Under the pieces are notes generated by a model. The model did no database searches. It had not been told where the DNA came from and saw nothing but the letters and a program-made list of their open reading frames with translations. 64,000 nt of DNA from contig CAWHXD010000017.1 of assembly GCA_963833225.1 (NCBI GenBank), positions 256,001 through 320,000 of the forward strand, in the 5' to 3' direction. Shown here piece by piece: positions 8,098 through 58,465 of the stretch (position 1 is the first letter of the stretch; each line of letters begins with the position of its first letter). Source of the stretch: an uncultured Chloroflexia bacterium (GTDB lineage Bacteria; Chloroflexota; Limnocylindria; Limnocylindrales; CSP1-4). The position numbers and the translations under genes are program-made.

Positions 8098-9525
8098 TCA
8101 GCCCGCTGGCGCGGTGTCGCCGCCGGTGGCCGGCGCCGCGGGAGGCACGCTTCCGCCCTGCCCGGGCAGCTCCACCCGGAAGATCGCCCCGCCGGTCTCC
8201 GCGTTGCGCACCCCGATCCGACCGCCGTGCCGCTCGGTGATCCAGCGGGCGATCGCGAGCCCCAGGCCGGTGCCGCCGGACGGTGCGCCGGGCGCTCGAT
8301 AGAACCGGTCGAACACGTGGGCCATGTCCTCGGGCCGCACGCCGGGGCCCTGGTCCGCGACCTCCACCGTCACCATGGTGCCGTCCGTCCGCGCCTGGAC
8401 CGACACGACCCCTCCGCGTGGGCTGTGGCGGACGGCGTTGTCGACGAGGATGGTCACCAGTTGGCGCAGGCGAACTGGATCGCCATCGAGCATAGCCGGC
8501 TCGGGGTCCACCTCGAGGCGGACCAGCCGGTCCTCGGCGAGGCGACCCAGGGAGGTCGCCGCGTCCGACGCCACGTCGCCCAGGTCCAGCGGCATTCGAT
8601 CCAACGGGATCGCCCCCAAATCCGACCGTGCCAGCAGCAGGAGATCGTCCACGAGCAGCGACAGGTGGGTCACCTCCGCCTCGATGTCATCGAGCGCCTC
8701 GGAGGTCGTGCCGAGAGGCTCCTCGCGATGCCGGTTGAGGTGCTCCACGGAGGACCGGATGACGGTCAGCGGTGTCCGCAGCTCGTGCGAGGCGTCGGCG
8801 GCGAACTCGCGCTGGCTCCGAAGCGCGGCACGCTGGGCGGTGAGCGACTCGCGGATCGGCACCAGGGCGCGGCGGGCGTAGAGCGCCCCAAGACCGAACG
8901 ACACGAGGACCACCAGGAACCCACCCCCAAGCAGCACGGCGAGCAGCGCGTTCAGGGTGTTCACCTCGGTGGAGCGGTCCTGGAGCGCCTGGACGTAGTA
9001 CGTGTTGCCGTCCCGGGCGTCGACGCGGTGGGTCAGGATCCGGATCGGGGCGACCGTCGTGGCGCCGCCCGCCTGGATCGTCAGCGTCGAGAGCCGGACA
9101 TCGGTGCGATCGGCGGCGGCTGCGGCGGCGCTCACCCCGTCGGACTCGGGAAGTCCGGCCGGCACGACCTGGCCCCGGTCGCCCAGCAGGACGGGCGTGC
9201 CCGTATCGTCGAACAGGTACAGCAACGTGTTGCCGTTGCCGAACAGGAACCCGAGACCCGGCTGCTCCTGGGTGTCCGGCGTCCCCTCGAGGAACGCGAC
9301 GATCCCCTGCGTCCTGGCCTCCAGCTGGGCAACCGACGCGGTCTCCAGAGCGCGTGCCGTGACCGCGTACAGCGCCGTCGCGAGCACGACCAGGACCGCC
9401 AGCGTGGACAGGCCGCTCCAGGCCACCAGGCGCCAGCGGGTGCGTCGGAGGAGCCGCGCCTGGTCGGCGAGCGCCCCCTGCTCGGCGCCGTCGTCGTCGG
9501 GCGCCAGGCCGACGCCGTCACCCAT
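8098..9525 (-). CDS. Sensor histidine kinase (MprB/CiaH-like)
   Basis: Two TM helices, ADASHELRTPL H-box, N/G boxes; start chosen at ATG 9525 overlapping the regulator. Confidence 0.92.
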   Translation of the reverse strand: MGDGVGLAPDDDGAEQGALADQARLLRRTRWRLVAWSGLSTLAVLVVLATALYAVTARALETASVAQLEARTQGIVAFLEGTPDTQEQPGLGFLFGNGNTLLYLFDDTGTPVLLGDRGQVVPAGLPESDGVSAAAAAADRTDVRLSTLTIQAGGATTVAPIRILTHRVDARDGNTYYVQALQDRSTEVNTLNALLAVLLGGGFLVVLVSFGLGALYARRALVPIRESLTAQRAALRSQREFAADASHELRTPLTVIRSSVEHLNRHREEPLGTTSEALDDIEAEVTHLSLLVDDLLLLARSDLGAIPLDRMPLDLGDVASDAATSLGRLAEDRLVRLEVDPEPAMLDGDPVRLRQLVTILVDNAVRHSPRGGVVSVQARTDGTMVTVEVADQGPGVRPEDMAHVFDRFYRAPGAPSGGTGLGLAIARWITERHGGRIGVRNAETGGAIFRVELPGQGGSVPPAAPATGGDTAPAG

Positions 9526-10204
9526 CGGACAGCCGGTACCCCACGCCGCGCACCGTTTCGACCTGCGCCCCCGCCGGCCCCAGCTTGGTGCGCAGGTAGT
9601 GGACGTAGGCGTCAACGGCGTTGGGCGTCACCGCGACGCTGAACGGCCACGCGTGATCGAGCAGCTGGTCACGCGTGAGCGCCTGACCGGGGTGGCGGAG
9701 GAGGGCTTCGAGCAGCGAGAACTCGCGGGGGCTGAGATCCACGTTGGCGCCATTCACCGTCACCCGGCGCGCGGCCTCGTCCAGCGTGATCGCACCGGCG
9801 GTCAGCCTCGGTTCTGAGCGTCGGGGTCCGGGCTCGGCCCGTCTCGCGAGGGCTCGCAGGCGCGCCGCAACCTCCGCATAGGCGAACGGCTTGACGACGT
9901 AGTCATCGGCGCCGGCATCGAGACCGGCGACACGGTCGTTGACCGTGTCACGGGCCGTCAGCATCAGGATGCTGACCTCCGCGCCCCGCGCGCCCTGCCT
10001 GCGGATCACGCGCGCGACATCGAGGCCGGACATGTCGGGCAGCCCGATGTCGAGGATCACGGCATCGAGGCCGTCGATCGCGCCGGCGAGCTCGATCCCG
10101 GAGCGACCGTCCGGCGCGTGCTCCACGACATGCCGGTCCTCCTCGAGGAGGCGGGTCAGGGCGCGGGCGAGACGCTGGTCATCCTCGACCAGGAGCAGGT
10201 GCAT
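9518..10204 (-). CDS. OmpR-family response regulator (MprA-like)
   Basis: LLVEDD, ILDIGLP, GADDYVVKPF, wHTH ETVRGVGY. Confidence 0.95.
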   Translation of the reverse strand: MHLLLVEDDQRLARALTRLLEEDRHVVEHAPDGRSGIELAGAIDGLDAVILDIGLPDMSGLDVARVIRRQGARGAEVSILMLTARDTVNDRVAGLDAGADDYVVKPFAYAEVAARLRALARRAEPGPRRSEPRLTAGAITLDEAARRVTVNGANVDLSPREFSLLEALLRHPGQALTRDQLLDHAWPFSVAVTPNAVDAYVHYLRTKLGPAGAQVETVRGVGYRLSDG

Positions 10205-11374: not shown

Positions 11375-12142
11375 TCAGCCTTTTGTGAGCTGCAGCTGCA
11401 CCTCGAGGATGCCCCGGTCCTGGACGGACAGCACCGCCATCGCCTGGGGCTTGGTGATGCCGTAGTCAGCAAAGGCGATCTCGAGCGAACCCGTGATGGT
11501 GACCACGCCGCTCCCAAGGCGCGCCTGCAGCGGGATCTCCACCGCATTGGTCACGCCGTGGAGGGTCAGGTCGCCGGCCGCGGTGATGTCGATCACGGCG
11601 CCATCCGCGGGCGCAGGTTCGAGGTCGATGGGGGTCGTGAGCGTGAACGTGGCCGTCGGGAACTGCGAGGTCTGGAGCGCCTGCCGGCTCAGCTGACCGT
11701 CGCGCCGGGTTTCGTCGCTCACGAGGCCGGTCAGGTCAGCCGTGAACTCGGCGGCGCTGACGACGGTGCCATCGACCGTGACGGAGCCCGTGACGTCGGG
11801 GGTGCGGCCGACGGCCTCCGTGGCCCCGATGCTGGCGAGGGTCTCCTGGACGCGGTAGCCGACGAACGAGCCTGAGAAGTCGGAGAACGAACCCACCGCC
11901 GGATCGACCGACCAGGTGCCGCCAAGGCCTCCGGCGTCGGTGGTCGCGCTGCCGGACGTCGAGGCTGCCGGGCTGCGGCCCACAAGCGTGACCGGCGCCG
12001 GTCCGGCCGGGCGGAAGAACAGGTACCACGTCCCCGCTGCGGCGCCGATGAGCACGACGACCGCCAGGATGGCCAGAATCGGGGCCGGGCGCGGGCGGCG
12101 GATCTGCGTGTTCACGGACGACACCGGCAGCGACGCGGTCAT
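11375..12142 (-). CDS. YceI-family lipid/polyisoprenoid-binding protein, membrane anchored
   Basis: N-terminal TM, GTWSVD, RRDGQL, GDLTLHGVT, FADYGI; start ATG 12142 overlaps PRTase stop. Confidence 0.85.
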   Translation of the reverse strand: MTASLPVSSVNTQIRRPRPAPILAILAVVVLIGAAAGTWYLFFRPAGPAPVTLVGRSPAASTSGSATTDAGGLGGTWSVDPAVGSFSDFSGSFVGYRVQETLASIGATEAVGRTPDVTGSVTVDGTVVSAAEFTADLTGLVSDETRRDGQLSRQALQTSQFPTATFTLTTPIDLEPAPADGAVIDITAAGDLTLHGVTNAVEIPLQARLGSGVVTITGSLEIAFADYGITKPQAMAVLSVQDRGILEVQLQLTKG

Positions 12143-12614
12143 GCGCCGGCCTTGTAGGGGTACTGGACCCAGCCGTCGGCCGTGTCCGCCCAGAGGTCCG
12201 GGGCTCCATCCACCCGGGAGCGCCCCGGCTTGAAGTGGACCACGGCGGACAGCGGGATCCCGCCAGCTGTCTTCACGCGCGCGACGACCTCGGTCATCGT
12301 CTCGCCCGTCTCCCAGACCTCGTCCACCACCAACACCCGCTGGCCAGCCAGCAGCGCCGCGTCGGGGAAGTGCCCGATCACCGGGGCTGGGTGCGTGCCG
12401 CCCTCGGGCCGGTAGAACATGGCGCCCGCCACCAGGATCTCGCGCAGGTCCAGGCGGTAGGCGAGCATCCCCGCCGGGCACGAGGCCCGCCACGGGTGAT
12501 CGCGAGCACGAGGTCATGGTCGCGACCGGCCTTCACGGCGAGCCGTTCGACCAGGGCGTCGAGCGCGTCCCAGGTGATGATCTGCGTATTGGGCACAGCG
12601 CCATCATCGCGCAT
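12139..12614 (-). CDS. Purine phosphoribosyltransferase (Gpt/Hpt-like), frameshifted near 12470-12490
   Basis: IITWD...LAITRGG / LVP / GMLAYRL...VLVVDEVWETGET...WVQYPY; extra Gs in G runs. Confidence 0.8.
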
Positions 12615-12634: not shown

Positions 12635-13387
12635 TCAGCCTCCGGTGCCGTTGCTCGGAGCGGGCGCGGACTCGGCGGGCCCCGCGGACTCGGCGGGGAT
12701 CCCGGACGCCACGGGCGTGGCCCTGATGTCGTGGCACAGGGTGCAGGTGCTGTCCTCACGCAGCGCATGGTCAATCGGCAGCGCGCCCACCTGTGCGCTC
12801 TGGTGGCACGCGCGGCAGGTGAGGTTCTGCGGGTCGGGATGGGGCTTCGTGGGCGGCGGGGCCGGGTTGGGCTTGTGGCACAGCCAGCACTCGTCCTGGT
12901 TGCGTCCCACCATGCTCGACGGGAGATGCGCCACCGATCCGTGGCAATCGAGGCAGGGCTCGTTGAGCTCGGCGTGCGCCTGGGTGATCGCCGGGCCGTC
13001 CTGGGCGATCTTGTGGCAGTTGAGGCACTCGCTCTCGGCGATGCCGGTGTGACCGGGCGCCTTGCGACCGAGCGTTTCATCCGTGTGACAGGTCAGGCAC
13101 GCGGTCCAGCCCTCGAGCGGGTGCCCGATCGCGGGGATCGGCTTGAGATCCGCGGCGCCACCCCGCTCGTGGCACAGCAGGCAGCTGTTCGAGGTGGGAA
13201 TGTGGGCCAGGCCCATCTGCATCGTCTCGGGTGTCGCCGCGACCGACGGTGCGCTGGTCTCGTCGGCGGTGCCGCGGGCCGGGATGACCTGCATCCAGTC
13301 GAGGACCATCGTGCCGGCCAGGAGAGCCACCACCACGAAGTTCGCCAGGATCAACAGCCGCAGCGTGCGGTCCAGCCGGGATCTCAT
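12635..13387 (-). CDS. Membrane-anchored multiheme cytochrome c (7 CxxCH)
   Basis: CLLCH, CLTCH, CLNCH, CLDCH, CWLCH, CRACH, CTLCH; N-terminal TM; ATGA overlap with protease. Confidence 0.9.
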   Translation of the reverse strand: MRSRLDRTLRLLILANFVVVALLAGTMVLDWMQVIPARGTADETSAPSVAATPETMQMGLAHIPTSNSCLLCHERGGAADLKPIPAIGHPLEGWTACLTCHTDETLGRKAPGHTGIAESECLNCHKIAQDGPAITQAHAELNEPCLDCHGSVAHLPSSMVGRNQDECWLCHKPNPAPPPTKPHPDPQNLTCRACHQSAQVGALPIDHALREDSTCTLCHDIRATPVASGIPAESAGPAESAPAPSNGTGG

Positions 13388-13935
13388 GCCATCGCCTCTG
13401 CCATGGGCCGGGTGGGGTCGCCACCTTGCCGCTCGTTGCTGAGAAGGAACGCCATTCGCGCGAGCTCGCGGCGGACAGCCGCGACAGCCGCCGGAATGGC
13501 GCCCGCCACCGCCGGCGAGAGGTGGACGCCGGCCTCGAGGTCCCCGACCTCGATCGCGACCATCGCCACCCGCGTCGGCAGCCAGCCCATGAGCCGGGCC
13601 ACCGCGAGGAGCTCGCCCACGGGCGTCCCCGCTCCCCCATCGGCGGCGCCGCCCGCCGAGCCCATCGCGTGGCCGTCCAGCACCCGGACCTCGCCGGCCG
13701 GCCCGCCGAGGCGCACGGCGTCCACGAGCACGAGGGCGCGCGACTCGCGGACTGGATCGAGCAGGTCGAGGCCGAGCGTCCCACCGTCGACCAGCCGCGT
13801 GCCCGAGGGAACGGTCCCGGAGGCCGCCTCCGCCTGGGCCCGCAGCGCCTCCACGACCCGCACGCCGACCGCATCGTCGCCGAGCATCACGTTGCCGACG
13901 CCGATCACGACCAGCGGAGCCACGGGGTGGTTCAT
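13384..13935 (-). CDS. Hydrogenase maturation protease (HyaD/HybD family)
   Basis: IGVGNVMLGDDAVG, VDGGTLGLDLL, LVDAV. Confidence 0.9.
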   Translation of the reverse strand: MNHPVAPLVVIGVGNVMLGDDAVGVRVVEALRAQAEAASGTVPSGTRLVDGGTLGLDLLDPVRESRALVLVDAVRLGGPAGEVRVLDGHAMGSAGGAADGGAGTPVGELLAVARLMGWLPTRVAMVAIEVGDLEAGVHLSPAVAGAIPAAVAAVRRELARMAFLLSNERQGGDPTRPMAEAMA

Positions 13936-14741
13936 GACTCGACCCGCTCCAGGAGCTCAGGCCCGCCGTCCCGCGACTCGACGACCTGGTGGCGGGTGGG
14001 GAACTTCCAGCCGCTGATGATGCTGCTGACCAGGCCGTTGTGCTCGATGTGGTCCACGAGCACGCAGCTGTACACGTGGAACAGCGCGATGGCGAGGATC
14101 AGCCACATCGAAAGGTGGTGGATCTGCCGAAGCAGCTGGGGACCCACGAGCTCGCGGAGCCAGGCGAACAGGGTGGCGCCGGGCTCAGCACCCATCAGGC
14201 CGTCGAGCGCGAAGCCGGTGACGGTCTCGACGAGGAGCAGCGCGAACAGGACGAGGTAGGCGGTGGCGGCCAGCTGGTTGTGGCCCAATACCTCCGGGAT
14301 CTCCTTGCGGATGAAGCCGTAGAACGCGCCCTGCCGGAACAGCTCCGTGAACTGGAACTTGGTGGTCGGGATGAACGCCTTCCAGCGAGCGAACCGGTTG
14401 CCGACCAGGAGCCAGTACGTGCGCACCAGCCCGGAGAGCAGGAACGTGAGCGCCGTCAGGATGTGGATGAGACGGACCGTCGACATCACGTTGCCGCCGG
14501 CGGGGATGAGGAACGGGTCGGCGATGTAGCCGCCGGTGACGGACAGGATCACGATGCAGCTCGCCGTGACCCAATGCGTCACCCGCACCGGGATCTGCCA
14601 GACGTACAGCCGGACCCGCTGGTCTGGGTTGGCCACATGGCCGTCATGAGGGACGGCGGCCACCGGGGGCTCAGCGACGGGCCCCACCTCGGACACGGGC
14701 TCCGGCTCGGCCGTTGCGAGGGGTTCGGAGACGGCGGTCAT
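13932..14741 (-). CDS. Ni/Fe-hydrogenase b-type cytochrome subunit (HyaC-like)
   Basis: YVWQIPVRVTHW, RLIH, GHNQLA, RQIHH, FHVY, SSIISGWK; four heme His present. Confidence 0.92.
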   Translation of the reverse strand: MTAVSEPLATAEPEPVSEVGPVAEPPVAAVPHDGHVANPDQRVRLYVWQIPVRVTHWVTASCIVILSVTGGYIADPFLIPAGGNVMSTVRLIHILTALTFLLSGLVRTYWLLVGNRFARWKAFIPTTKFQFTELFRQGAFYGFIRKEIPEVLGHNQLAATAYLVLFALLLVETVTGFALDGLMGAEPGATLFAWLRELVGPQLLRQIHHLSMWLILAIALFHVYSCVLVDHIEHNGLVSSIISGWKFPTRHQVVESRDGGPELLERVES

Positions 14742-16504
14742 CGGGGCTCCTCGGGAGCAGTGTGGCGGCCCGGGTGGAACCCCGGGGCCTCGAACACATG
14801 GGCTGCGCACGCCGCGCACGGCGCGAACGAATGGATGACCCGGAGGAGCTCCACGGGCCTGGCCGGGTCCACCACCGCAACGCCTTCGAGCGCCGACTCC
14901 ATCGGGCCGGGCATCCCCCGGGCATCTCGCGGGGACGCGTTCCACGTCGACCCGTCGACGACCTGGTAGTGGTCGATCACCGCATCCTTGATCCGCAGCC
15001 AGTGACCGACGGACCCGCGGGGCCCCTCACCCAGCGACCAGCCCTCCACCTCCGACGGCCAGGAGACCGGATCCCACAGCTCAACGCTCGCGATGGCCAC
15101 GTCGCCGGTCGCGAGGCTGGCAGCGAGGTCGTCGAGCCAGCCCGCGAGGGCGGTCGTCACGACATCGAGCTCCACGGCCCGGGCAAGCGTTCGTCCCAGG
15201 GCACCGGTCACCTGCGCCGATGACAGACCCGCGTCGCCGAGCATCCGCCCGAACGACTCCCGGATCTCCGGCCGTCCATTCGCGGTGCCCACGAGGACAC
15301 GCGCCAGGGGGCCCGTCTCCATCACGAGCCCATCGAGCCGGGCGGACTTGACCCACGTGTACTTCTCGCCGGCATTGAGCTGCGAGAGGGGGATCTGCCC
15401 GGTGTACCTGGGCGTCGTCTCGCCCTCGGCGGGCGGGCGGAGCGAGTCGTCGACGTCGCTGTAGGCGTACCAGGCGTGTGAGACGGACTCCCCGACCGAT
15501 GCCTCGGCCACCGGCTTGGGTCCCTCGAGGTTGCCGCCGACCAGCCGTCCGCTCGAGAACAGGCGAGCCGGATCCCGGCTGGCGTCATCGGGGAACTCGC
15601 CGCTGCACAGGTAGTTGCCCGGCCCCGCCCCGATGGTGAGCCATTCCGGGTACGCCGCCATCAGCAGGGCGGTGTCCGGCAGCACGACCTGGTCGACGAA
15701 GGTCCGAGCGCTCCGCACGAGCGTCCGCATCAGCGCGATGCCCTCGTCGCTCAGGGCGAGGGGAGCGTTGTGATCCGGCACCTGGGGGTGCTGCCGGGTC
15801 TTGGCCACGTCGGGGCCACCCCACGGCGGCGCGAGCGCCATGCCGCCGACGAGGAAGGTCTGCGGGTGGGCCTCCTTGCCCGACAGCAGCGTGTGGATCC
15901 GCATGAAGTCCCGCTGCCAGTCCAGCGCGTCGAGGGCGTGGGTCATCAACAGCAGGCTCTGTTCCGGGCTCAGCAGATAGGCCGGGTGACCTGCCCAGGC
16001 CGGCGCGAACGGGCCCGGCTGCGAGGACGACACGACGGCAGCCAGGCGATCCCGGATCGACGCGAAGACCTCTGGCGTGGCTCCCGGCCAGGCGCTGCGA
16101 CCCTGGGCGAGCCGCGCGGTCGCTCCGGGGTCCGCGGTGATGGCCGCCGTCACGTCGACCCACTCGGGCAGGGCTCGCTGGTAGAGCGTCATCACGTGGT
16201 CGCGGACGAGCAGCGCGCCGCCGAGGACGTTGCGGATCAGGCGCGCGTTGGCCGGGATCTCGATCCCCAGCGCCTGCTCGACCGCGCGCACGGACGCGAG
16301 CGCGTGGACGCCGGTGCACGTCCCGCAGATGCGCTGCGCGAGCAGCCACGCGTCGCGCGGGTCGCGGCCGCGGAGCACCGACTCCATGCCGCGGAACATC
16401 GTGGCCGAGGCCCAGGCCGCGGACACGGAGCCGGCGGTGACGTCGGCCTCGACGCGGAGCTGGCCACCGAGGCGGGTGACGGGGTCGATGACGATGCGGG
16501 CCAT
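14738..16504 (-). CDS. Group 1 [NiFe]-hydrogenase-like large subunit with altered active-site motifs
   Basis: RGMESVLRGRDPRDAW...RICGTC (L1), GPRG, FAPCAACAAH (L2) plus 19-aa C-terminal extension. Confidence 0.9.
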   Translation of the reverse strand: MARIVIDPVTRLGGQLRVEADVTAGSVSAAWASATMFRGMESVLRGRDPRDAWLLAQRICGTCTGVHALASVRAVEQALGIEIPANARLIRNVLGGALLVRDHVMTLYQRALPEWVDVTAAITADPGATARLAQGRSAWPGATPEVFASIRDRLAAVVSSSQPGPFAPAWAGHPAYLLSPEQSLLLMTHALDALDWQRDFMRIHTLLSGKEAHPQTFLVGGMALAPPWGGPDVAKTRQHPQVPDHNAPLALSDEGIALMRTLVRSARTFVDQVVLPDTALLMAAYPEWLTIGAGPGNYLCSGEFPDDASRDPARLFSSGRLVGGNLEGPKPVAEASVGESVSHAWYAYSDVDDSLRPPAEGETTPRYTGQIPLSQLNAGEKYTWVKSARLDGLVMETGPLARVLVGTANGRPEIRESFGRMLGDAGLSSAQVTGALGRTLARAVELDVVTTALAGWLDDLAASLATGDVAIASVELWDPVSWPSEVEGWSLGEGPRGSVGHWLRIKDAVIDHYQVVDGSTWNASPRDARGMPGPMESALEGVAVVDPARPVELLRVIHSFAPCAACAAHVFEAPGFHPGRHTAPEEPR

Positions 16505-16505
16505 C

Positions 16506-17741
16506 TCAGCGCTCCTCGGTCATCGGAGCGTCGGGGGCGGCCACGCCCTCCGGATCGGACGGGGCCGGACTGGTCGTCTCGGGCGGGGCGGGATCAATCG
16601 TCTCGGGGGTGGCCGCATCGACAGCCTCCGCGACCGCGGCTCCCTCGGCGGCGGCGAGCGCTTCACGGCGCTCGTTCCGCGCGCGTCGCCGGTACCTCAC
16701 GCTCATGCCTACCGCGTGCGCGGCGGCCACCGCGCCGATACCGCCGACCATCGCGGCGCCCACGACATCCGTGGTCAGGTTCGGGAGGAATGGCACCGGG
16801 GACGGGAGACGGCGATACGCGGGGCCCATCTGTTCCCAGAAGTTGGGGGTCACGCAGCCGATGCAGCCGTGGCCGGCGCGAATGTTCCAGCTCACGCCCT
16901 CGCCGTAGCGAACGACCGGGCAGTTGCCCATGCTCTCGGGGCCCTTGCAGCCGACCTTGTACAGGCACCAGCCACGCTGGGCGCCCTCGTCGCCCCAGGC
17001 GAGGGCGAACTCGCCGAACTCGAAGTGGGGCCGGCGCTCGCACTCGTTGTGGATCAGGTTGCCGTAGGCGGCGAGGGGCCGGCTGGCGAGGTCGAGCGCC
17101 GGCCACTCGTTGAACGTGAGGTAGTGGACGATGACCGACACCAGGTTGACGACATTCATCGGGCAGCCGGGCAGGGCGATGAGCTTGGTATCGCCGGCGA
17201 TGCCACGGATCCCGTGCGCCTCCGTGAGACCACCTGGCGCCGCCGGCGCACCACCGTCCACGGCGCACGAGCCCACGGCGATGACCGCGAGGGCGCCCGC
17301 GATGACCTCCCGGGCGACGTCGCGAACGGGCCGGCCGCCAACCAGGCAATAGGCACCCGAGGCACCGTCGGGGATCGATCCCTCCACGACCGCGACGTAC
17401 CCCTTCGGGTAGCGCTCCATGGCGGTGGCCCGGGCCGCGTCCGCCCCGGCGCCGGAGGTCGCCATCAGCGACTGGTGGTATTCGAGTGACAGCGTGTCGA
17501 GCAGCAGCGTCTCGATCGTTGGATCCGGGCTGCGCAGGAACGATTCGGTGTTGCCGCTGCACGTCTGGCCCCGGACCCAGATCACGGGCAGGCGCGGCGC
17601 GGTCTCGAGCGCCGCCGCGATCCGTGGCGCGTACGACGCCGGCAGCGCGAGCGCCGCGGCCATCGCCGAGGAGAGCTTGATGAACGTTCGACGGGTCATC
17701 CCGCGCGCCAGCAGGGCGGCGTACAGACCGGCGTCGTCCAT
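16506..17741 (-). CDS. Group 1 [NiFe]-hydrogenase small subunit, Tat signal, C-terminal TM
   Basis: TRRTFIK Tat motif, CSGNTES, GSC, PGCP, HNEC, WCLYKVGCKGP, NCP, HGCIGC. Confidence 0.93.
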   Translation of the reverse strand: MDDAGLYAALLARGMTRRTFIKLSSAMAAALALPASYAPRIAAALETAPRLPVIWVRGQTCSGNTESFLRSPDPTIETLLLDTLSLEYHQSLMATSGAGADAARATAMERYPKGYVAVVEGSIPDGASGAYCLVGGRPVRDVAREVIAGALAVIAVGSCAVDGGAPAAPGGLTEAHGIRGIAGDTKLIALPGCPMNVVNLVSVIVHYLTFNEWPALDLASRPLAAYGNLIHNECERRPHFEFGEFALAWGDEGAQRGWCLYKVGCKGPESMGNCPVVRYGEGVSWNIRAGHGCIGCVTPNFWEQMGPAYRRLPSPVPFLPNLTTDVVGAAMVGGIGAVAAAHAVGMSVRYRRRARNERREALAAAEGAAVAEAVDAATPETIDPAPPETTSPAPSDPEGVAAPDAPMTEER

Positions 17742-20422: not shown

Positions 20423-20439
20423 CCTAAGGATTCCCTAAA
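20423..20439 (-). promoter_or_regulatory. Putative KdpE-type binding site (11-bp period direct repeat)
   Basis: Minus strand TTTAGG GAATC CTTAGG, an AT-rich patch upstream of the small ORF-kimA unit. Confidence 0.5.
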
Positions 20440-21187
20440 GACTCGTCCCGGGCGGCTCAGCATCTTCGGCAACCTCGGCGATCCGGTAGCCCACACCGGG
20501 CTCGGTCACGATCAGACCGTCGAGACGGTGATCAGGATCCGCGGCCGCGAGCTTCCGGCGCAGCTGGCTGACATGGACGTAGACGTAGCTGTCCTCACCC
20601 TGGTACGCCTCGCCCCAGACGGCACGGAGCAGACGGCCCTTGGTGACCACCCGTCCTCGATGGGTCAGGAGCACCCGCAGCAGCTCGAACTCCCTGGGCG
20701 TGAGATCGAGGGCGCGGCCACCGATCCGGACCGCGTGGCCCGCGACGTCGAGCACGAGGGGCCCCGCGGTGACGCGACCCGCCTGGTCGCCGGCCGGGCC
20801 TGCGGCACGCCGTAGCGCCACGCGGATGCGCGCGCGCAGCTCGTCGACCCCGAATGGCTTGGTCACGTAGTCGTCAGCACCGCGGTCGAGAGCCTCAACC
20901 TTCTCGTGCTCCTCGTATCGTCCGGACAGGATCACGATCGGTGTGGCGGCCTCGCGCCGGATAGCGGACACCACGCGTAGCCCATCCATGTCCGGCAGGC
21001 CGAGGTCAAGCAGCACGAGGTCCGGTCGTCGAGCCGCCCAGCGTTCGAGCGCCGTCCGCCCATCCGCCGCCTCCGCGACCGCGTAGCCTCCGGCCACCAG
21101 CTCGCGAACCAGGGCCGCCCGGGTCTCGGTGTCGTCTTCGACGACCAGGATCGTCGCACCCGAGCCGATGGGCACCGGGGGCCGCAT
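20435..21187 (-). CDS. kdpE: KdpE-like response regulator
   Basis: LVVEDD, LLDLGLPDMDG, KVEALDRGADDYVTKPFG, IVTEPGVGY. Confidence 0.88.
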   Translation of the reverse strand: MRPPVPIGSGATILVVEDDTETRAALVRELVAGGYAVAEAADGRTALERWAARRPDLVLLDLGLPDMDGLRVVSAIRREAATPIVILSGRYEEHEKVEALDRGADDYVTKPFGVDELRARIRVALRRAAGPAGDQAGRVTAGPLVLDVAGHAVRIGGRALDLTPREFELLRVLLTHRGRVVTKGRLLRAVWGEAYQGEDSYVYVHVSQLRRKLAAADPDHRLDGLIVTEPGVGYRIAEVAEDAEPPGTSL

Positions 21188-22755
21188 CACGCCGTCGCCT
21201 CCGCCGGCGACGGTTCGGCGAGGCCGTCCGGCACGCGTGTTGCCGGCAGGTCGATATCCACCGCAAGCCCACCAAGCTCGCTGCGGCGGGCGGCCACGCG
21301 CCCGCCGGTGGCCTCGACCAGCCCGCGCGCCACCGCGAGGCCGATCCCAGTCCCTTCCCGCGACGACCACCGGCGATTCGGGACCCGGTAGAACTTCTCG
21401 AACAGGCGCGGCAGCAGCTCGTCCGGCACGCCCGGCCCATCGTCCTCGATCGTGAGCCGGACCCGGTCGGGGTCGAGGTCCCGGGCCGTCACCCGGATCC
21501 GCGCTCCATCGGGCGTGTACTTCACCGCGTTGTCGAGGACGTTGCCAGCGGCTTCGTCCACGAATACCGGGTCCGCGGACACCGGGACTGCCCGGAGGTC
21601 GACGTCCAGGCGGCGGCCCGCGAGGCGGGTCCGCGTGCTCTCGACCGAGCGGGTCAGCAGATCGTCGAGATCGAACAGCTCACGCACCGGTCGCAGGGCC
21701 CCCGCCTCGATCCGCGACAGGTCCAGGAGATTTGTCACGAGTCGGTTGAGGTAGGCGACCTCCCGCTCGATGGCGTCGGCGCTCGCCTGCCGGTCCATAT
21801 CCGACAGCGCGCCGTCGGGCCGCAGGCTCCCCGCTGCCGCGCGGATCGTCGCCAGCGGCGTCCGCAGGTCATGCGAGACCGATTGGAGGAGCGCGGACTT
21901 GAGGGCGTCACTCTGGCGGGCCACCTCCGCCGCGCGTGTCTGGTCCTCGGACCGCTCGACGGCGATCGCCTGCCCCACCTGGCCCGCGGTCGCCGCCAGC
22001 AGCCGGGTCTGGATGCCGTCCGGCTCGCCCAGCGACCGGGCGCGCGTCGCCCAGATCGATCCGAGCGGCTCGCCGCCGGCCTCGATGCGGATGCGGTAGG
22101 CGTCACTGGGCGCCGAGGCGCGGATCATTCCCGGACGCTGGACGAGCACCCATCGCGGCGGCTGGTCATCGGGCAGGCGCTGGAGCACGCGAACGCGTCC
22201 GGGCTGGACAGGCGGGCGGCCCTCGCCGCTGTCGGCCGCCACGGTCTCCGTCGCCGGATCCGGGCCGATCCCGATCCAGGCACGTTCGAGATCGGCCTCC
22301 GCAGCGAGGACCTCGACGATCCCACGCAGCGCGCCGCGCATCGTGGTTCGACTGGCCAGCGAGCGGCTGACCCCGAACAGGGCGCGAGCCTCGCGCTCAC
22401 GGGCCGTGGCCGCCTCGGCACGCTCGCGCTGCGTGGCGGCCAGCCGGCCGACAACCACCCCGACGAACAGCAACAGCACGGTGCTGAGCAGCACGCCCGG
22501 GTCATGGATCAGGAAGGTGTAGCGAGGCTCGGTGAACCAGAAGTTGTAGAGCGCCGCGGAGCCCATCGCGGTCACGATCGCCCCGTCGGTGCCGACCAGC
22601 AGCGCCACGAACACCACGGCGACGAGATAGACGGCCGACGCGTTGTCGACGCCCAGGGCTCCCTCGAGCAGGGCGACGGCCGCCGTCGCCAGCGCGAGCG
22701 AGATGCCCGCTGCGGCGAGCAGCCGGACCAGGCGGCGGAGCGCAGTGGGCATCAT
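21187..22755 (-). CDS. KdpD-like sensor kinase (DUF4118 + GAF + HK), lacking N-terminal KdpD/Usp domains
   Basis: YNFWFTEPRYTF DUF4118 motif, SVSHDLRTPL, NLLDLSRIEAG, GIGLAV. Confidence 0.88.
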   Translation of the reverse strand: MMPTALRRLVRLLAAAGISLALATAAVALLEGALGVDNASAVYLVAVVFVALLVGTDGAIVTAMGSAALYNFWFTEPRYTFLIHDPGVLLSTVLLLFVGVVVGRLAATQRERAEAATAREREARALFGVSRSLASRTTMRGALRGIVEVLAAEADLERAWIGIGPDPATETVAADSGEGRPPVQPGRVRVLQRLPDDQPPRWVLVQRPGMIRASAPSDAYRIRIEAGGEPLGSIWATRARSLGEPDGIQTRLLAATAGQVGQAIAVERSEDQTRAAEVARQSDALKSALLQSVSHDLRTPLATIRAAAGSLRPDGALSDMDRQASADAIEREVAYLNRLVTNLLDLSRIEAGALRPVRELFDLDDLLTRSVESTRTRLAGRRLDVDLRAVPVSADPVFVDEAAGNVLDNAVKYTPDGARIRVTARDLDPDRVRLTIEDDGPGVPDELLPRLFEKFYRVPNRRWSSREGTGIGLAVARGLVEATGGRVAARRSELGGLAVDIDLPATRVPDGLAEPSPAEATA

Positions 22756-22935
22756 CGTTGAAGGTCGTCCGGCAGTCGGGCCGGAGCGCGTGGAGGTCGA
22801 GCGGCCCCCGGTATCCATGAGCTGGCGCGCTCCGTGCGCGTGCCGCGCAGCATATGGCACGACGGCCGACGATGAACTGGGCGTTCGGGCGCCCTGGGCC
22901 TGACCGGTCGGTTGCCGGTCGTTGCCGCCACGCAA

Positions 22936-22964
22936 GAGCCCCTCCTGGCAACCCGGAGGGGCTC
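22936..22964 (-). terminator. Hairpin terminator downstream of tRNA-Lys
   Basis: GAGCCCCTCC / GGAGGGGCTC 10-bp perfect stem. Confidence 0.7.
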
Positions 22965-22980
22965 GTTCGTGCATGAGAGA

Positions 22981-53321: not shown

Positions 53322-53678
53322 TCACGCGTCGCCCGCCCCCGTGCGGAGCCTGACCTCGAGCAGCGCCAGCTCCGCCGTCGGCGGGAACGAGCGCAGCTCA
53401 TTGCAGCCCGGGCAGATGGCCTGGGACGGGCCGATGACATCGTCGTGCTCAAGGGCGCCATCGAACCCGCACGAGCAGGCCAGTCGCAACTCGAATGGGT
53501 CCACCGTCAGCTCCGCGCCCTCCAGCACGGTGCCGGGCACCAGCATCTCGAACGCCTGGCGCAACACGTCGTCCGGGATCGTGGTCGCGCGCTGGACGGC
53601 CACGAGCGAGACCGGCGACCCTCCTGCGCGGGCGATCGCCGCGTCAACGAGCGCTGCCACCAGGGACACCTCATGCAC
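53322..53678 (-). CDS. hypA: Hydrogenase nickel metallochaperone HypA
   Basis: (M)HEVSL, LEGAEL, CSC...CPGC. Confidence 0.85.
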   Translation of the reverse strand: MHEVSLVAALVDAAIARAGGSPVSLVAVQRATTIPDDVLRQAFEMLVPGTVLEGAELTVDPFELRLACSCGFDGALEHDDVIGPSQAICPGCNELRSFPPTAELALLEVRLRTGAGDA

Positions 53679-54138
53679 GCCGATGCGCCTCCACGACTCG
53701 CGCAACGGCGTCGGCGGCGCGCTCCACGGCGGCCGCCACGACGGGCGTCATCCGCTCCCCCACCTCAAGGGACGCAGGTCCCACCGAGACCACCACGACC
53801 GGAGGCGCGGTGCCCCAGAGCTCGCGGGCGAGCCCCACCAGGCCCGCCGGATCCAGGTGGTGGGTCCACGCGGTCCCGGCCTCGCCGGCCGCCTCCAGCC
53901 GGCGCACGGTCACACGACCCGGCTCAGCCTCCGCGTCGGCATCGACCAGGACCAGGAGCGACGCCCCGCTGGCGTCCTGGGCGAGCTCCGGCGTCAGCTG
54001 GTGCTCGCTGCGGATCGCCACCCCGGCCATCCGCGGATCGCGTTCCAGGCGCGCGGCCACCGCGGGTCCCGCGCCGTCGTCGGAACGAAGCGGGTTGCCG
54101 TACCCGATCACGAGGATGGGGCCGGACGCCACCGTCAC
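53671..54138 (-). CDS. hoxW: Hydrogenase maturation protease (HoxW-like)
   Basis: IGYGNPLRSDDGAG, HQLTPELA, VDA, THH. Confidence 0.88.
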   Translation of the reverse strand: MTVASGPILVIGYGNPLRSDDGAGPAVAARLERDPRMAGVAIRSEHQLTPELAQDASGASLLVLVDADAEAEPGRVTVRRLEAAGEAGTAWTHHLDPAGLVGLARELWGTAPPVVVVSVGPASLEVGERMTPVVAAAVERAADAVARVVEAHRRA

Positions 54139-55556
54139 CGGGCGATTTCGCCCAGGATCTCGCCGCCCGGGGCGAGGAGCTGGATGCGCAGCGCCATCTG
54201 CCCCAGCGCATGGGTGGAGCAGGACAGGCACGGGTCGTAGCAGCGGATGACCGCTTCGACCCGGTTGAGCATCGATTCCTCGAGCCGGTCGGCCTTGACG
54301 TGCTTGCGGGCAACCTGGAGCACGGCGCGGTTCATCGCCGCGTTGTTGTGCCCGGTCGCGATCACCAGGTTCACCCACTCGACGAGCCCGTTCTCATCCA
54401 CCTTGTAGTGGTGCATGAGGGTGCCGCGAGGGGCCTCGGCGACACCGATCCCCTCGAGCCGGTTGATGCCGGCCGTCGACCGCGTGCGGTGGTCGAGGAT
54501 GTCGGGGCCCCGGAGCAGCAGCTCGATCTTCTCGATTGCGTGCAGCGTGTCGATCAGGCGCGCGTAGTGGTAGTGGAAGGACGAGCCCGCGACACGGCCC
54601 ACGCGCCAGCGGAACTTCTCGAGCTCCTCGTCGGCGCGCGGTGTGCCCGTGCGCTCGGCCACGTTGAGCCGGGCCAGCGGTCCCACGCGGTAGATGCCGT
54701 CGGGGTAGCCCATCGGCTTCCAGTACGTCGTCTTGAGGTAGGACCACGGCTCAACGGCCTCGCCGATGTAGTCGTTGAACGCCTTGGGGTCGATCTTGTC
54801 GGCCAGGAAGTGCCCGTCGGCATCCACGACCCGGATCCAGCCGCCGTAGTGGTCGACGTTGCCCTCGCGATCGACGAGACCCATGAACGCCGAGCGGAAG
54901 TTGCCGAAGGTGGCCGCCTCCTCCTCCCAGCGCAGCATGTCCGTCTTGTACCAGGCGATCGCCCGTTCGGTGGCCGCCAGGGCCTCCGGAACGCCGGCCA
55001 GGATCCGGTCACGGACCTCCTCGGTGAGCTGGAACGCGACGCCACCCGGGACGATGCCCGTTGGATGGATCCGCTTGCCCCCCAGCCATTCGATGATCTG
55101 CTGGCCCCACTTGCGCAGCCCGATTCCGTCTCGGGCGAGGGCCGGGTTCTTCTGGGCCACCCCCACGATGTTGCGGATCGCGGGATCTGCGTCGAACCCG
55201 AACAGCAGGTCGGGCGACGAGAGGTGGAAGAACGAGAGCGCGTTGCTCTGGACGATCTGTCCGAGGTTGATGATCCGCCGGAGATCCGCACCGGTGGGCG
55301 TCGGCTCGACGGCCATGATGTCGTCCACCGCCTTGGACGAGGCGATGAGGTGGCTGACCGGGCAGATTCCGCAGATTCGGGCCATCAGCGCCGGCATCTC
55401 GTGCACCGGCCGGCCCTGGGTGATCCGCTCGAAGCCGCGGAACTGGGTGACGTGGAAGTGCGCGTCGACGACCTCGCCGCGGTCGTCGAGCTGGATCGTG
55501 ATCTTGGAGTGGCCCTCGATCCGGGTGACGGGATCGATCGTGATCGTCTGGCTCAT
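54135..55556 (-). CDS. hoxH: Bidirectional NAD-linked (group 3d) [NiFe]-hydrogenase large subunit
   Basis: DPVTRIEGH, RICGICPVSH, EAPRG, YDPCLSCSTH. Confidence 0.96.
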   Translation of the reverse strand: MSQTITIDPVTRIEGHSKITIQLDDRGEVVDAHFHVTQFRGFERITQGRPVHEMPALMARICGICPVSHLIASSKAVDDIMAVEPTPTGADLRRIINLGQIVQSNALSFFHLSSPDLLFGFDADPAIRNIVGVAQKNPALARDGIGLRKWGQQIIEWLGGKRIHPTGIVPGGVAFQLTEEVRDRILAGVPEALAATERAIAWYKTDMLRWEEEAATFGNFRSAFMGLVDREGNVDHYGGWIRVVDADGHFLADKIDPKAFNDYIGEAVEPWSYLKTTYWKPMGYPDGIYRVGPLARLNVAERTGTPRADEELEKFRWRVGRVAGSSFHYHYARLIDTLHAIEKIELLLRGPDILDHRTRSTAGINRLEGIGVAEAPRGTLMHHYKVDENGLVEWVNLVIATGHNNAAMNRAVLQVARKHVKADRLEESMLNRVEAVIRCYDPCLSCSTHALGQMALRIQLLAPGGEILGEIAR

Positions 55557-55567
55557 CGTCGGTCTCC

Positions 55568-56098
55568 TCAGCGCCCGAACCGGGCGCCAGCGACCTCGGG
55601 GGTCCGACCGGACAGCAGGTCGTCAAGCAGGGTGTAGATGATGTCGGCGCTGGGCGGGCAGCCCGGTAGGAACACGTCCACGTCCACGAACCGGTTGACC
55701 GGCTGCGAGGTGGGCAGAAGCTTGGGCACGACCTGGTCTGGGACCATCCGATTGAGCGTCGCATTCTCGAGGTACGCCCGGTCCAGGAGAGGCCCCGGGC
55801 CGATGGGATTGCGCATCCCGGGCACGTTGGAGGTCACGGCGCAGTCCCCGAAGGCGATCAGCACCTTCGTCCGTTCGCGGACCGTCCTGATCCGCTCGAG
55901 GTCGTCCTCGCTGGACACCGCGCCCTCGACGAGACAGACGTCGACGTTCTCGGGGAACTCCTTGATGTCCACCAGCGGACCGTAGACGAGGTCCGCCCGG
56001 GAGAAGATGTCGAGCAGACGCTCGTCAAGGTCCACGAGCGACATGTGGCAGCCCGAACAGCCGTCGAGCCAGACCGTTGCAACACGCGGCTTGGTCAC
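55568..56098 (-). CDS. hoxY: Bidirectional hydrogenase small subunit
   Basis: WLDGCSGCHMS, GDCA, PGCPP. Confidence 0.95.
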   Translation of the reverse strand: MTKPRVATVWLDGCSGCHMSLVDLDERLLDIFSRADLVYGPLVDIKEFPENVDVCLVEGAVSSEDDLERIRTVRERTKVLIAFGDCAVTSNVPGMRNPIGPGPLLDRAYLENATLNRMVPDQVVPKLLPTSQPVNRFVDVDVFLPGCPPSADIIYTLLDDLLSGRTPEVAGARFGR

Positions 56099-56808
56099 AG
56101 CCCACGCTCCTCGGTGTGGACCCGCATCCAGGGCAGGAACGGGCGCTTGTGCCTGGAGCCCGCCGCGACCGGCCGGCCCTTCTCGAACAGGGCACCGGTG
56201 GGACACACCTGGACGCACTTCCCGCAGCTGGTGCACGTCGTCGAATCGCCCCACGGGATGCCCATGTCCGCCTGGACCCGGGTCTCGAGGCCGCGATGCA
56301 TCACGTCCCAGACGTGCGCTCCCTCGATCTCGTCACAGACCCGCACGCAGCGCAGGCACAGGATGCAGCGGTTGTGGTCCAGGCCGAACAGGCGGTGAGT
56401 CAGGTCGACGTCCACCTGGGGGTTGATCCGCGGCAGGTCGAAGTGGGTGACCTTGAGCTCCTCGGCCATGTCCTGGAGCTCGCAGTGATTGTTGGCCACG
56501 CAGACGGCGCACACGTGGTTGCGCTCGAGGAAGATCATCTCCGTCGCAGCGCGGCGGTACTCCTCGAGCTCCTCGTCGTGCGCGGTGACGTCCATGCCCT
56601 CGGCGATCTGCGTCACGCAGGCCGCGGCGAGCCGCGGCGAGCCTCCGATCTTCACCACGCACAGGCGGCAGGCGCCTCGGTCGTGGATCCCCGGCAGGTG
56701 GCACAGGCCCGGGATGTCGATCCCGTTCTCCTCGGCCACCTCCATGATCGACTGGCCCTCGTTGCCGGCGACGTCCTTGCCGTCGATCCGGAGCGTGTAG
56801 ACGGTCAT
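56095..56808 (-). CDS. hoxU: Diaphorase Fe-S subunit
   Basis: [40 protein letters not shown]. Confidence 0.95.
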
Positions 56809-58465
56809 GCCATCACCTCCGCCGGCTGATCGATCTCACAGACGCCGGCGGGGCACCGCTTGTCCACGATGTGGGCGAGGTACTCGTCCCGGAAGTAGCG
56901 CAGCGTGCTGAAGATGGGATTGGGGGCGCCCTGCCCCAGGCCGCACAGGCTCATCCGCTGCACGACCTTCGCGAGGCGCTCCAGCTGGGCAAGGTCGGCC
57001 ATGTCAGCACGGCCCCGGCAGATCTTGTCCAGCAGCATCCACAGCTGGGTGGTGCCCACCCGGCACGGGACGCACTTGCCGCACAATTCGTCCCGGCAGA
57101 AGTCCTGGAAGTAGCGCGCGACGTCCACCATGCACGAGGTGTCGTCCATCACGATCATCCCACCCGATCCCATGAACGAGCCGAGCTCGATCAGGGACTC
57201 GTAGCTGACGTTCGTGTCGAGGAACTCGGCCGGGATACAACCGCCGGACGGGCCGCCCGTCTGGACCGCCTTGAACGGGCGGTCGTCGATGATTCCGCCA
57301 CCGATGTCGTAGATGATCTCGCGAAGGGTCATGCCCATCGGGACCTCGACGAGGCCCGTGTTCACGACCCGCCCGGCGAGGGCGAACACCTTGGTGCCCT
57401 TGCTCTTGCCGATGCCGATCGAGCTGTACCAGTCGGCCCCATTGCGCAGGATCGTGGGCACGTTCGCGAAGCTCTCGACGTTGTTGATCAGGGTCGGGCA
57501 GCCGAACAGGCCGCTGACCGCCGGGTACGGCGGGCGTGGTCGCGGGGTGCCACGCTTGCCCTCGACCGACTGGATGAGGGCCGTTTCCTCGCCGCACACG
57601 AAGGCGCCGGCGCCGAGGCGGATCTGGATGTCGAACGTGAACGAGGTGTCCGCGATGTTCGAGCCCAGGAAGCCGGCCCGCTGGGCCAGCCGGATCGCGT
57701 TTCGAAGGCGGGTCACCGCGAGCGGGTACTCCGCGCGGCAGTAGATGTAGCCCTCGGTCGCGTGGACCGCGAAGGCCGCGATCGCCATGCCCTCCAGGAC
57801 GCGGAACGGGTCACTCTCGAGGACGCTGCGGTCCATGAACGCGCCGGGGTCACCCTCGTCGGCATTGCAGATCACGTACTTCTGCGTGCCAGGCGCCTTG
57901 GCCACCGTCGTCCACTTGAGGCCGGTCGGATAGCCCGCGCCCCCGCGGCCGCGCAGCCCGCTCTCCGTGATCACCTCGCGGACCTCGGTGGAGGTCATGT
58001 CGGCCAGGACGGTGTTGAGGGCTTCGTAGCCACCGCGCTCGACGTAGTCGTCGAGGCTCTCCGGGTCGATGCGACCCATGTTCTCGGTGGCGACGCGGAG
58101 CTGCTTCTCGAAGAACGGACCCTGCGGCTGGGGCGTGTCCGCGTCCGTGACGGTCCTGAGCGCCTCGACGATCGGGGCGACGCGCATCGGGCGTGACCGC
58201 GCTGAACAGCTGTCCCGTCTGTGGGATCTCCACCAGCGGCCCAGCGGCGCACAGGCCGAGGCAGCCGACGCGCTTGACGACGACGTCGGTCAGGCCGGCC
58301 TCGGCGGCCGCCTCGCCCAGGCGCAGCGTGATGTCGTGGGACTGGGCAGAGACAGCAGGAGGCCGCCTCGCACACGTAGGCATGCGCGCGCACCGGCCCC
58401 TCGTGGATCTCCTCCGTGATCACGCGGCGGCGGATCGGCCGCGCCGCGGCAGGCTGCTCGCTCAC
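56805..58465 (-). CDS. hoxF: Diaphorase flavoprotein subunit; two apparent frameshifts (~58350, ~58190)
   Basis: N-terminal ferredoxin (YVC..SC / GCLGLC) split over frames; [28 protein letters not shown]. Confidence 0.9.

Follow-up and report, generated by a model that had tools for sequence, protein, structure and literature searches.

A conserved clade of group-1 [NiFe]-hydrogenases from Chloroflexota without the proton-gate glutamate, a candidate for proton exit by another route

The DNA analysed in this work, referred to below as the window, is a stretch of 64,000 nucleotides of contig CAWHXD010000017.1 (positions 256,001 to 320,000, assembly GCA_963833225.1) from an uncultured Chloroflexia bacterium. 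The gene under study is an open reading frame (ORF) at 14738..16504 on the minus strand of the window, which starts with ATG and encodes a protein of 588 amino acids (P0001). The protein matches the [NiFe]-hydrogenase large-subunit family PF00374 with 539.4 bits and departs from the canonical enzymes at several active-site motifs; the homologues that share these departures are called here the variant clade. The nearest solved structure found with HMMER was the Allochromatium vinosum enzyme (3myr_B, E value 6.9e-149), followed by Salmonella Hyd-5 (4c3o_A) and Escherichia coli Hyd-1 and Hyd-2. An AlphaFold model based on an alignment of 52 sequences reached a mean predicted local distance difference test score (pLDDT) of 88.4 and a predicted template-modelling score (pTM) of 0.90, and its best Foldseek match was again 3myr_B, with template-modelling (TM) scores of 0.90/0.95 and 44 % identity. 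The full-length profile match and the fold match place the protein within the large-subunit family. Its scores lay below the equivalog cut-offs of the NCBIfam models for Hyd-1 (NF007550, 436.8 vs 1101 bits) and Hyd-2 (NF007778, 436.3 vs 969 bits), and the search of the ESM Atlas with the large subunit returned generic hydrogenase clusters only. The gene encodes a group-1 [NiFe]-hydrogenase large subunit built like that of a membrane-bound uptake enzyme.

The substitutions were placed by ungapped HMMER alignment to 3myr_B and 4c3o_A and were all found at canonical positions. The features of the gene are as follows.

14738..16504, minus strand: [NiFe]-hydrogenase large subunit of the variant clade, PF00374 aligned over profile positions 1-508 of 508
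16460..16474, minus strand: L1 motif R11-L-G13-G-Q15, with Gly at the site of the proton-gate Glu and Gln at the His site
16319..16321, minus strand: Thr62, between the two N-terminal Ni-binding Cys, at the gas-channel Val site (V74 in Desulfovibrio fructosovorans numbering)
16172..16204, minus strand: L3 region R101-D102-H103-V-M-T106-L-Y-Q109-R110-A111
15776..15829, minus strand: clade-specific insertion of ~17 residues (P226-P243), after VGGM
15011..15028, minus strand: L4 motif E493-G-P-R496-G-S, in which the canopy Arg is retained and the flanks are changed from A to G and, at 499, from L to V
14951..14956, minus strand: Asp517-Gly518, in place of the Val-Pro that precedes the CN-binding Ser/Thr
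14798..14824, minus strand: L5 motif A561-P-C563-A-A-C566-A-A-H569, with the canopy Asp replaced by Ala and Cys, Cys and His retained
14741..14797, minus strand: C-terminal extension of 19 amino acids beyond His569, the presumed endopeptidase substrate

The window protein reads DPVTRLGGQ, RICGTCTG, TLYQR, GKEAHPQ, EGPRGSVGHW, VVDGSTWN and SFAPCAACAAH at the motifs concerned. Set against the canonical forms, RIEGH has become RLGGQ, CGVC has become CGTC, HDHxxHFYHLH has become RDHVMTLYQRA and GKNPHP has become GKEAHP, and EAPRGAL, VVPSTWN and FDPC are represented by EGPRGSV, VDGSTWN and FAPC, respectively. At the level of single residues the changes are E to G13, H to Q15, V to T62, VP to D517/G518 and D to A561. 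The codons are GGT for G13 (16466-16468), GAC for D517 (14954-14956) and GCG for A561 (14822-14824). The HxHxxHxxHxH motif in the L3 region is reduced to an Asp-His pair, and R110 occupies the site of the gas-channel Leu (L122). One member of the canopy Asp pair (D118/D574 in Hyd-1 numbering) is present as D102, and the second site, 561, is Ala. C60, C63, C563, C566, the canopy R496, H569 and the tail of 19 amino acids are all retained. The window protein has neither the L1 Glu nor the x-Pro before S/TTWN, both of which are commonly regarded as universal. The equivalence of T62 and V74 is tentative and based on a constant numbering offset, and the Val-Pro pair is presumed to lie at the Fe-CO pocket, the residues of which are not named in passages of PMC10875664 and PMC9886862. 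Model confidence was low at the C-terminus (pLDDT <50 for residues 567-588) and modest in blocks of the inserted loop (pLDDT 59-73).

Motifs and codons (GGT, GCG) agreed with those quoted in the original prediction, which names no strand, and so did its internal control: HoxH, encoded elsewhere in the window (54135-55556, minus strand), retains RIEGH and DPCLSC. Single-base errors had been judged unlikely there, and this judgement stands, as the ORF is intact and the changes are common to the orthologues.

Conservation was assessed in a family set of the 120 best homologues, taken as representatives of 90%-identity clusters from NCBI, ENA, JGI and Logan and 54-100% identical to the query. The gate Glu was found in none of the 118 homologues with a residue at that position, which was G in 98, N in 15, D in 3 and S in 2. 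Asp517 was present in all 120, followed by G (75) or A (45), and Thr62 in 110 of the 118 with a residue there. The metal-binding cysteines were retained among homologues with a residue at the site (C60 in 118/118, C63 in 117/118, C563 in 118/119 and C566 in 119/120), as were H569 (118/120) and R496 (119/120). D102, H103 and E445 were each found in 120/120, Arg101 in 117/120 and Asp or Glu at position 211 in 117/120. Two sites varied. Position 110, the gas-channel Leu site, was A in 52, R in 23, S in 17 and G in 10, with other residues in the rest. Position 561 was A in 79, N in 19, S in 11, D in 6 and G in 2, with P, V and a gap once each. A C-terminal tail of 9-23 amino acids followed in all 118 homologues in which the PCxxCxxH motif was located. 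The insertion of ~17 residues was seen in 10/10 variant sequences inspected and in 0/12 canonical ones, the nearest sisters included, and its W228, G230, P231, H239 and P240 were invariant in 120/120.

The extent of the rewriting was estimated by an unbiased divergence scan that compared 115 family members with 27 canonical group-1 large subunits; a position was counted as replaced if it was at least 85% conserved in the canonical set and the canonical residue occurred in at most 5% of the family. This applied to 13 of 145 canonical-conserved positions (13, 62, 106, 109, 110, 113, 190, 490, 494, 499, 512, 517 and 518), the other 132 being untouched. Most of the 13 fall in or beside motifs L1-L4, as judged from the alignment and numbering offsets. 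They cover the proton gate, the end of the gas channel and the surroundings of the Arg and of the Fe ligands, a tentative assignment made from numbering and not from measured contacts. Since this pattern is a signature of the family, it lies far beyond chance, and the phrase 'systematically rewritten active site' used in the original prediction is a fair description.

The loss of the gate Glu and the gain of the Asp went together. Among cluster representatives with both positions, all three bearers of the Asp were without the gate Glu and none of the 62 bearers of the Glu had the Asp. The same coupling was seen in a sample of 401 genomes of the phylum, in 7/7 variant and 13/13 canonical sequences. 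A further 19 more distant cluster representatives have neither the gate Glu nor the Asp; loss of the gate Glu is therefore not unique to the variant clade, and these sequences speak against a coupling by necessity. A separate clade of shorter, large-subunit-like proteins (P0183, P0212, P0233, P0238, P0251 and P0258; ~460-470 amino acids, with CGIC and TPxxWN motifs) has the gate Glu replaced by H, N or S and is without the Asp.

Selection was estimated as the ratio of non-synonymous to synonymous substitution rates (dN/dS) by the Nei-Gojobori method, using the closest pairs (dS 0.35-0.55) and setting aside the pairs at dS 0.8-1.4 as saturated. For the large subunit the ratio was 0.17 for the window against L007 and against L008 (dS ~0.53), 0.18 for L007 against L008 and 0.126 for L010 against L011. 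The neighbouring genes gave 0.10-0.12 (small subunit), 0.14-0.24 (cytochrome b), 0.09-0.25 (haem protein) and 0.36 (protease). The large-subunit copy at L014:8001-9753 carries a frameshift near residue 264 (ORF of 467 amino acids, two tblastn segments), due to an assembly error or a pseudogene, and it was left out of the dN/dS reading for that reason. The rewriting appears to be under purifying selection and to reflect neither decay nor artefact. Conservation of RLGGQ and VDGSTWN with low dN/dS, the check set beforehand, was borne out by the absence of Glu (0/118), the presence of Asp (120/120) and ratios of 0.13-0.18. The third motif proposed for the check, FAPC, behaved differently: position 561 is indeed other than Asp in 114/120 homologues, but FAPC itself is confined to a sub-clade and basal members retain FDPC.

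In a FastTree phylogeny of 80 sequences the variants formed one clade with P0121 basal. A second tree was calculated from 59 sequences, including 20 large subunits from the phylum sample, after 16 signature columns had been masked; all 30 variants still formed one clade with no canonical member inside. The sisters of this clade are canonical enzymes of the same bacterial family (L020, L022 and L025). In the phylum sample 33 of the 401 genomes had a match at E <= 1e-100, and of the 20 matches fetched 7 were variant, all in the window's own family (f1), and 13 canonical. As read from the trees, the change of E to G, the change of VP to D(G/A) and the insertion are basal, and the change of V to T, the change of H to Q and the loss of the FDPC Asp came later.

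The proteins of the basal branch (P0121, L018 and L021) stop directly at the C-terminal His and have no tail. The one basal tail-less locus with context (L035) contains a small subunit, a large subunit and cytochrome b, the protease and haem c genes being absent. A selenocysteine reading of the in-frame TGA codons in genomes G258 (L018) and G226 (L021) was considered and rejected, the TGAs being stop codons just after the C-terminal His. Three genomes of the window's genus (G084, G306 and G354) carry variant copies 53-58% identical to that of the window, whereas loci L007 and L008 from metagenome-assembled genomes (MAGs) are 83-84% identical to it. Several deep subtypes, or exchange, within the one genus are suggested by these identities.

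The large-subunit gene lies within an operon whose other genes are listed below.

16506..17741, minus strand: small subunit, 411 amino acids, with a twin-arginine translocation (Tat) signal (RRTFIK), iron-sulphur (FeS) ligands and a C-terminal membrane helix (PF01058, PF14720, PF10518)
13932..14744, minus strand: Ni/Fe-hydrogenase b-type cytochrome, 270 amino acids, with four hydrophobic segments (PF01292; TIGR02125, 130.8 bits, cut-off 121.5)
13384..13935, minus strand: maturation endopeptidase of HyaD/HybD type, 183 amino acids (PF01750; TIGR00072, 111.7 bits, cut-off 47.45)
12635..13387, minus strand: membrane-anchored heptahaem cytochrome c, 250 amino acids, with 7 CXXCH motifs and an N-terminal hydrophobic helix (weak Pfam matches to cytochrome c7/c3)
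11375..12142, minus strand: YceI-domain protein, ~255 amino acids from Met126 of a long ORF, with an N-terminal hydrophobic helix (PF04264, 77.6 bits)

The order small subunit, large subunit, cytochrome b, protease, heptahaem cytochrome was the same in 7/7 variant loci, all from MAGs labelled 'uncultured Chloroflexia', and the YceI gene was found downstream in six of them. The mechanically called ORF of cytochrome b (13932-14945) shares 208 nucleotides with the end of the large-subunit gene. The true start is likely the ATG at 14744, giving an overlap of 7 nucleotides, which suggests translational coupling. The tail of the large subunit goes together with an endopeptidase gene in the operon, and tail-less basal relatives (L018) have no adjoining protease gene, as maturation logic would have it. 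It is unusual for a single hydrogenase operon to encode both cytochrome b and a multihaem cytochrome c. An ORF of 109 amino acids with a high GC content at third codon positions (12139-12468, minus strand) lies between the genes for haem c and YceI and may be a gene remnant because its match is confined to the middle of PF00156 (phosphoribosyltransferase, 48-131 of 158).

The small subunit scored 375.7 bits with TIGR00391 (cut-off 179.5) and adjoins the large subunit. It is of the Tat type, and the ligand positions of all three FeS clusters are occupied, the second proximal Cys being Asn. A Thr stands at the site of the small-subunit Glu16 of Desulfovibrio vulgaris Miyazaki F. This residue, which precedes the first Cys, was Thr in 7/7 core loci and Asp in L012 (54% identity), in a canonical paralogue of the same genome and in Herpetosiphon L013. 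Standard enzymes have CxxC at the proximal FeS cluster; here the motif is C61-S-G-N64 (window 17550-17561), and the Asn was found in 10/10 aligned small subunits (also in L001 and L007-L014). Since the canonical paralogue and Herpetosiphon share it, the Asn ligand is a trait of the wider Chloroflexota group-1 lineage and not of the variant clade.

The canonical paralogue just mentioned is a second group-1 enzyme, encoded on contig C6, with RIEGH, CGVC, HFYHL, GKNPHPQ, EAPRGAL, VVPSTWN and FDPC all in canonical form. It consists of a large subunit of 570 and a small subunit of 406 amino acids, and its operon has a cytochrome b and a protease gene of its own but neither a haem c nor a YceI gene. 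A search for four maturation genes located hypF, hypC and hypD on contig C19 and hypA beside the Hox operon in the window. Among the five related genomes searched, the completeness of which is unstated, the variant was the sole PF00374 match above 500 bits in four, one of them a 3.62-Mb record titled 'chromosome: 1'. Variant and canonical group-1 enzymes coexist in two genomes. As the sole group-1 hydrogenase in those four related genomes, the variant probably carries an ordinary uptake role there and would not be an accessory copy.

About 40 kb from the variant operon the window contains a complete operon for a bidirectional hydrogenase of HoxEFUYH type together with hypA (53322-59118, minus strand). 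This spacing may be conserved, for in the five related genomes the contig that carries the variant also has short PF00374 matches about as far from it. The variant operon is flanked on both sides by two-component systems (8098-10204 and 20435-22974, minus strand). The upstream set, consisting of a KdpD-like kinase with DUF4118, a response regulator and a permease-like protein of 702 amino acids, is syntenic in 5/7 variant loci.

In canonical enzymes the proton is transferred from the terminal Cys to a Glu less than 4 Å away, according to passages of PMC10430524, and then along the chain Glu34(L)-Thr18(S)-Glu16(S) described in passages of PMC10498676. Because Gly and Gln replace the L1 residues in the large subunit and Thr replaces the acidic residue in the small subunit of the core clade, this classical exit is dismantled on both subunits. 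The consequences can be compared with mutants of the Hyn enzyme of Thiocapsa roseopersicina, closely related to A. vinosum, the source of the nearest solved structure; for these mutants passages of PMC3325256 report 0% activity for R487I and D103L, 0-18% in vitro for H104A/F and ~50% for E436I. For E14Q they give ~50% of in vitro uptake and evolution, and for the H102/107/110/112A tetra-mutant 64-85% in vitro. The variant family has lost exactly the counterparts of E14 and of the four dispensable His, and it has kept the Arg-Asp-His-Glu set (R496, D102, H103 and E445) in 119-120 of 120 members. The statement of the original prediction that the gate Glu is needed for turnover does not hold generally, in view of the activity left in Hyn E14Q.

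The reading that we prefer, with a probability of roughly 0.6, is that of an active H2-oxidizing enzyme whose proton path would be rerouted through Arg-Asp-His-Glu and whose gas-channel end would be remodelled. It is based on the conservation, the coupled changes, the operon and maturation logic and the purifying selection described above. On this reading the enzyme would be a functional, Tat-exported, membrane-anchored uptake hydrogenase, and the variant clade would have a single origin among the group-1 hydrogenases of one family of Chloroflexota. H2, which we infer to be the substrate, would still be split at Ni-Fe, and the proton would leave by Arg496-Asp102-His103-Glu445, possibly helped by Asp517, by His239 of the inserted loop or by water in the space vacated by Gly13. 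The polar or small residues at the end of the gas channel (Thr62 and the variable position 110) would alter the access of gas and perhaps also how the enzyme responds to O2. V74 and L122 are gas-channel residues in D. fructosovorans numbering, and hydrophilic residues at V74 speed the reactivation of that enzyme after O2, according to passages of PMC11023054. By way of the FeS chain, electrons would reach cytochrome b and quinone as well as the heptahaem cytochrome c, which is specific to this operon, on the outside of the membrane. The suggestion of the original prediction that the protein may be a pseudo-hydrogenase, no longer oxidizing H2 normally, found no support, as the Cys, the canopy Arg, the tail with its endopeptidase, the Tat-type small subunit, cytochrome b and hypA, hypC, hypD and hypF are all retained.

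Several points weigh against this reading. To our knowledge an Asp beside the diatomic ligands of Fe is without precedent, and it might alter the cofactor; the part of Asp517 or His239 in proton transfer is pure conjecture on our side. The canopy Asp (D574 in Hyd-1), which helps to hold the Arg in canonical enzymes according to passages of PMC10430524, is lost in 114/120 members. The tolerance seen in Thiocapsa may not transfer to the variant clade, because in D. fructosovorans no H2 oxidation is left after the change of the gate E to Q, according to passages of PMC3325256. The non-conserved gas-channel Leu site fits a relaxed or altered access of the substrate. Since the basal L021 has lost both the canopy Arg (it reads PGG) and Asp102, catalytic activity may have disappeared from part of the wider lineage. 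The deepest variant node had a Shimodaira-Hasegawa-like support of just 0.23 when the signature columns were masked. Finally, no RNA run with the gene was present among the 21 sequencing runs listed; 20 of these gave matches, none of them to half or more of the sampled words.

Among the competing explanations the one that survives best, possible though in our judgement unlikely, is a repurposed enzyme in which the Ni-Fe site is assembled and the chemistry has changed, be it that Asp517 alters the Fe ligand sphere, that the substrate is not H2 or that the bias is strongly shifted. It would then serve mainly as the redox head of an electron wire that cytochrome b and the heptahaem cytochrome form. 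The clustering of the 13 replacements on the proton gate, the gas-channel end and the neighbours of the Fe ligands would suit such a change, as would the invariant Asp517, the clade-specific insertion with its invariant W, G, P, H and P and the Leu site that is often small or charged. The heptahaem cytochrome gene, present in the variant operon and absent from that of the canonical paralogue, points the same way, and the coexistence of both enzymes in two genomes fits a division of labour. However, the known residues that bind Ni, Fe and the two CN, the tail, the protease and the Hyp genes are all retained, and in four of the five related genomes a repurposed enzyme would be the sole group-1 hydrogenase. 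No alternative substrate for a group 1-3 [NiFe] hydrogenase was found in the literature searched, and we know of none for any such enzyme. The explanation keeps its standing because both the orientation of Asp517 and the placement of the Val-Pro pair at the pocket are tentative. A more far-reaching reading is doubtful: the first-shell chemistry would be changed by an invariant carboxylate at the Fe pocket, a gate gone on both subunits and a wide, polar channel end, possibly with altered cofactor ligands or protonation site. Catalysis would then be non-standard, with another small-molecule substrate, biased H2 evolution or O2-insensitive turnover, and electrons would be delivered to the extracytoplasmic heptahaem cytochrome.

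It is improbable that the protein is an H2 sensor, resembling the regulatory hydrogenases, that binds H2, turns it over slowly and signals to a flanking two-component system. A histidine kinase and a response regulator do stand on each side of the operon, the upstream pair being syntenic in 5/7 variant loci; the proton gate is lost, and the tail-less basal relatives recall regulatory hydrogenases. Nevertheless, the Tat signal, the membrane anchor, cytochrome b and haem c imply respiratory wiring outside the cytoplasm and not a kinase-bound cytoplasmic sensor, the window protein has both tail and protease, and known sensor hydrogenases retain the gate Glu.

A decaying pseudogene or scaffold pseudoenzyme, or a sequencing or assembly artefact, is very improbable: the frameshift in L014, the losses in L021 and the metagenomic origin of the genomes would fit it, but the ORF is intact with dN/dS of 0.13-0.18. 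In addition, 120 independent cluster representatives, drawn from several sources, carry the same substitutions, 132 of the 145 canonical-conserved positions are unchanged and the new residues are themselves invariant.

The proton exit of [NiFe] hydrogenases is a long-running question, the candidates being the Cys-to-Glu gate and the pendant Arg with an Asp-His chain, and the evidence on the two routes has so far come from impaired laboratory mutants. The variant clade would offer an enzyme from nature, maintained by selection, that has lost the Glu route on both subunits and keeps an Arg-Asp-His-Glu chain that is invariant or nearly so. It may thus serve as a natural test of which route suffices and of the effect of an Asp beside Fe(CO)(CN)2. 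There is also a consequence for annotation: classifiers will presumably call these proteins ordinary group-1 uptake hydrogenases of soil Chloroflexota, and conclusions on H2 cycling would then rest on an unusual variant. No published description of a Glu-less group-1 clade was found, although the supplementary hydrogenase tables of papers on Chloroflexi and on cold deserts might list such genes under 1e or 1f.

Of the known systems, regulatory group 2b was not matched. Its sensors are cytoplasmic and have neither a Tat signal nor a C-terminal extension, whereas the window operon has a Tat signal and a membrane anchor as well as a tail and a protease. Groups 1l and 1m comprise high-affinity hydrogenases of soil bacteria from Chloroflexota/'Eulabeiota' and Actinobacteriota. 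They occur in related soil lineages, and 1l is reported from the same wider lineage in passages of bioRxiv 10.1101/2021.08.23.457424. The subunit genes of 1l are separated by five small transmembrane genes, and the 1m clusters have other accessory genes (passages of PMC9561532). Both groups were rejected, since in the window the subunit genes adjoin, a Tat signal and cytochrome b are present and the operon content is otherwise different.

The best match in sequence and fold is with the Isp-type HynSL enzymes of group 1e (A. vinosum 3myr, Thiocapsa Hyn), which have the Arg-Asp-His-Glu chain in common with the window protein. Hyn has RIEGH, the full His-rich motif, VPSTWN and FDPC, and the window protein is altered at all four. 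In Hyn operons isp1 and isp2 lie between the subunit genes. The operon type of group 1e was not matched, as no gene separates the subunit genes of the window (the small-subunit gene ends at 16506 and the large-subunit gene starts at 16504, 1 nucleotide apart) and cytochrome b lies downstream. The order small subunit, large subunit, cytochrome b, protease is the same as in group 1f, represented by synton-3 of Frankia (hupS3-hupL3-hupC-hupD), for which passages of PMC11879354 give HupL3 of ~573 and HupS3 of 410-420 amino acids; the likeness of the window operon, the C6 paralogue and the nearest sisters of the clade to 1f is one of described sizes and gene order only. From these canonical sisters the variant clade differs by the Gly gate, the Asp-Gly/Ala in place of Val-Pro, the insertion of 17 residues and the heptahaem cytochrome gene.

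E. coli Hyd-1 and Hyd-2 have the same fold (TM 0.86-0.90), the same Cys ligands and the same pendant Arg, and they have CxxC forms where the proximal-cluster motif of the window is C-x-G-N. The window protein resembles a combined substitution of E28 and D574 of Hyd-1; the laboratory variants of the two enzymes (E28Q/E14Q, D574 and R509/R479) are impaired and changed at single sites, whereas the window protein carries what appears to be a co-adapted natural set.

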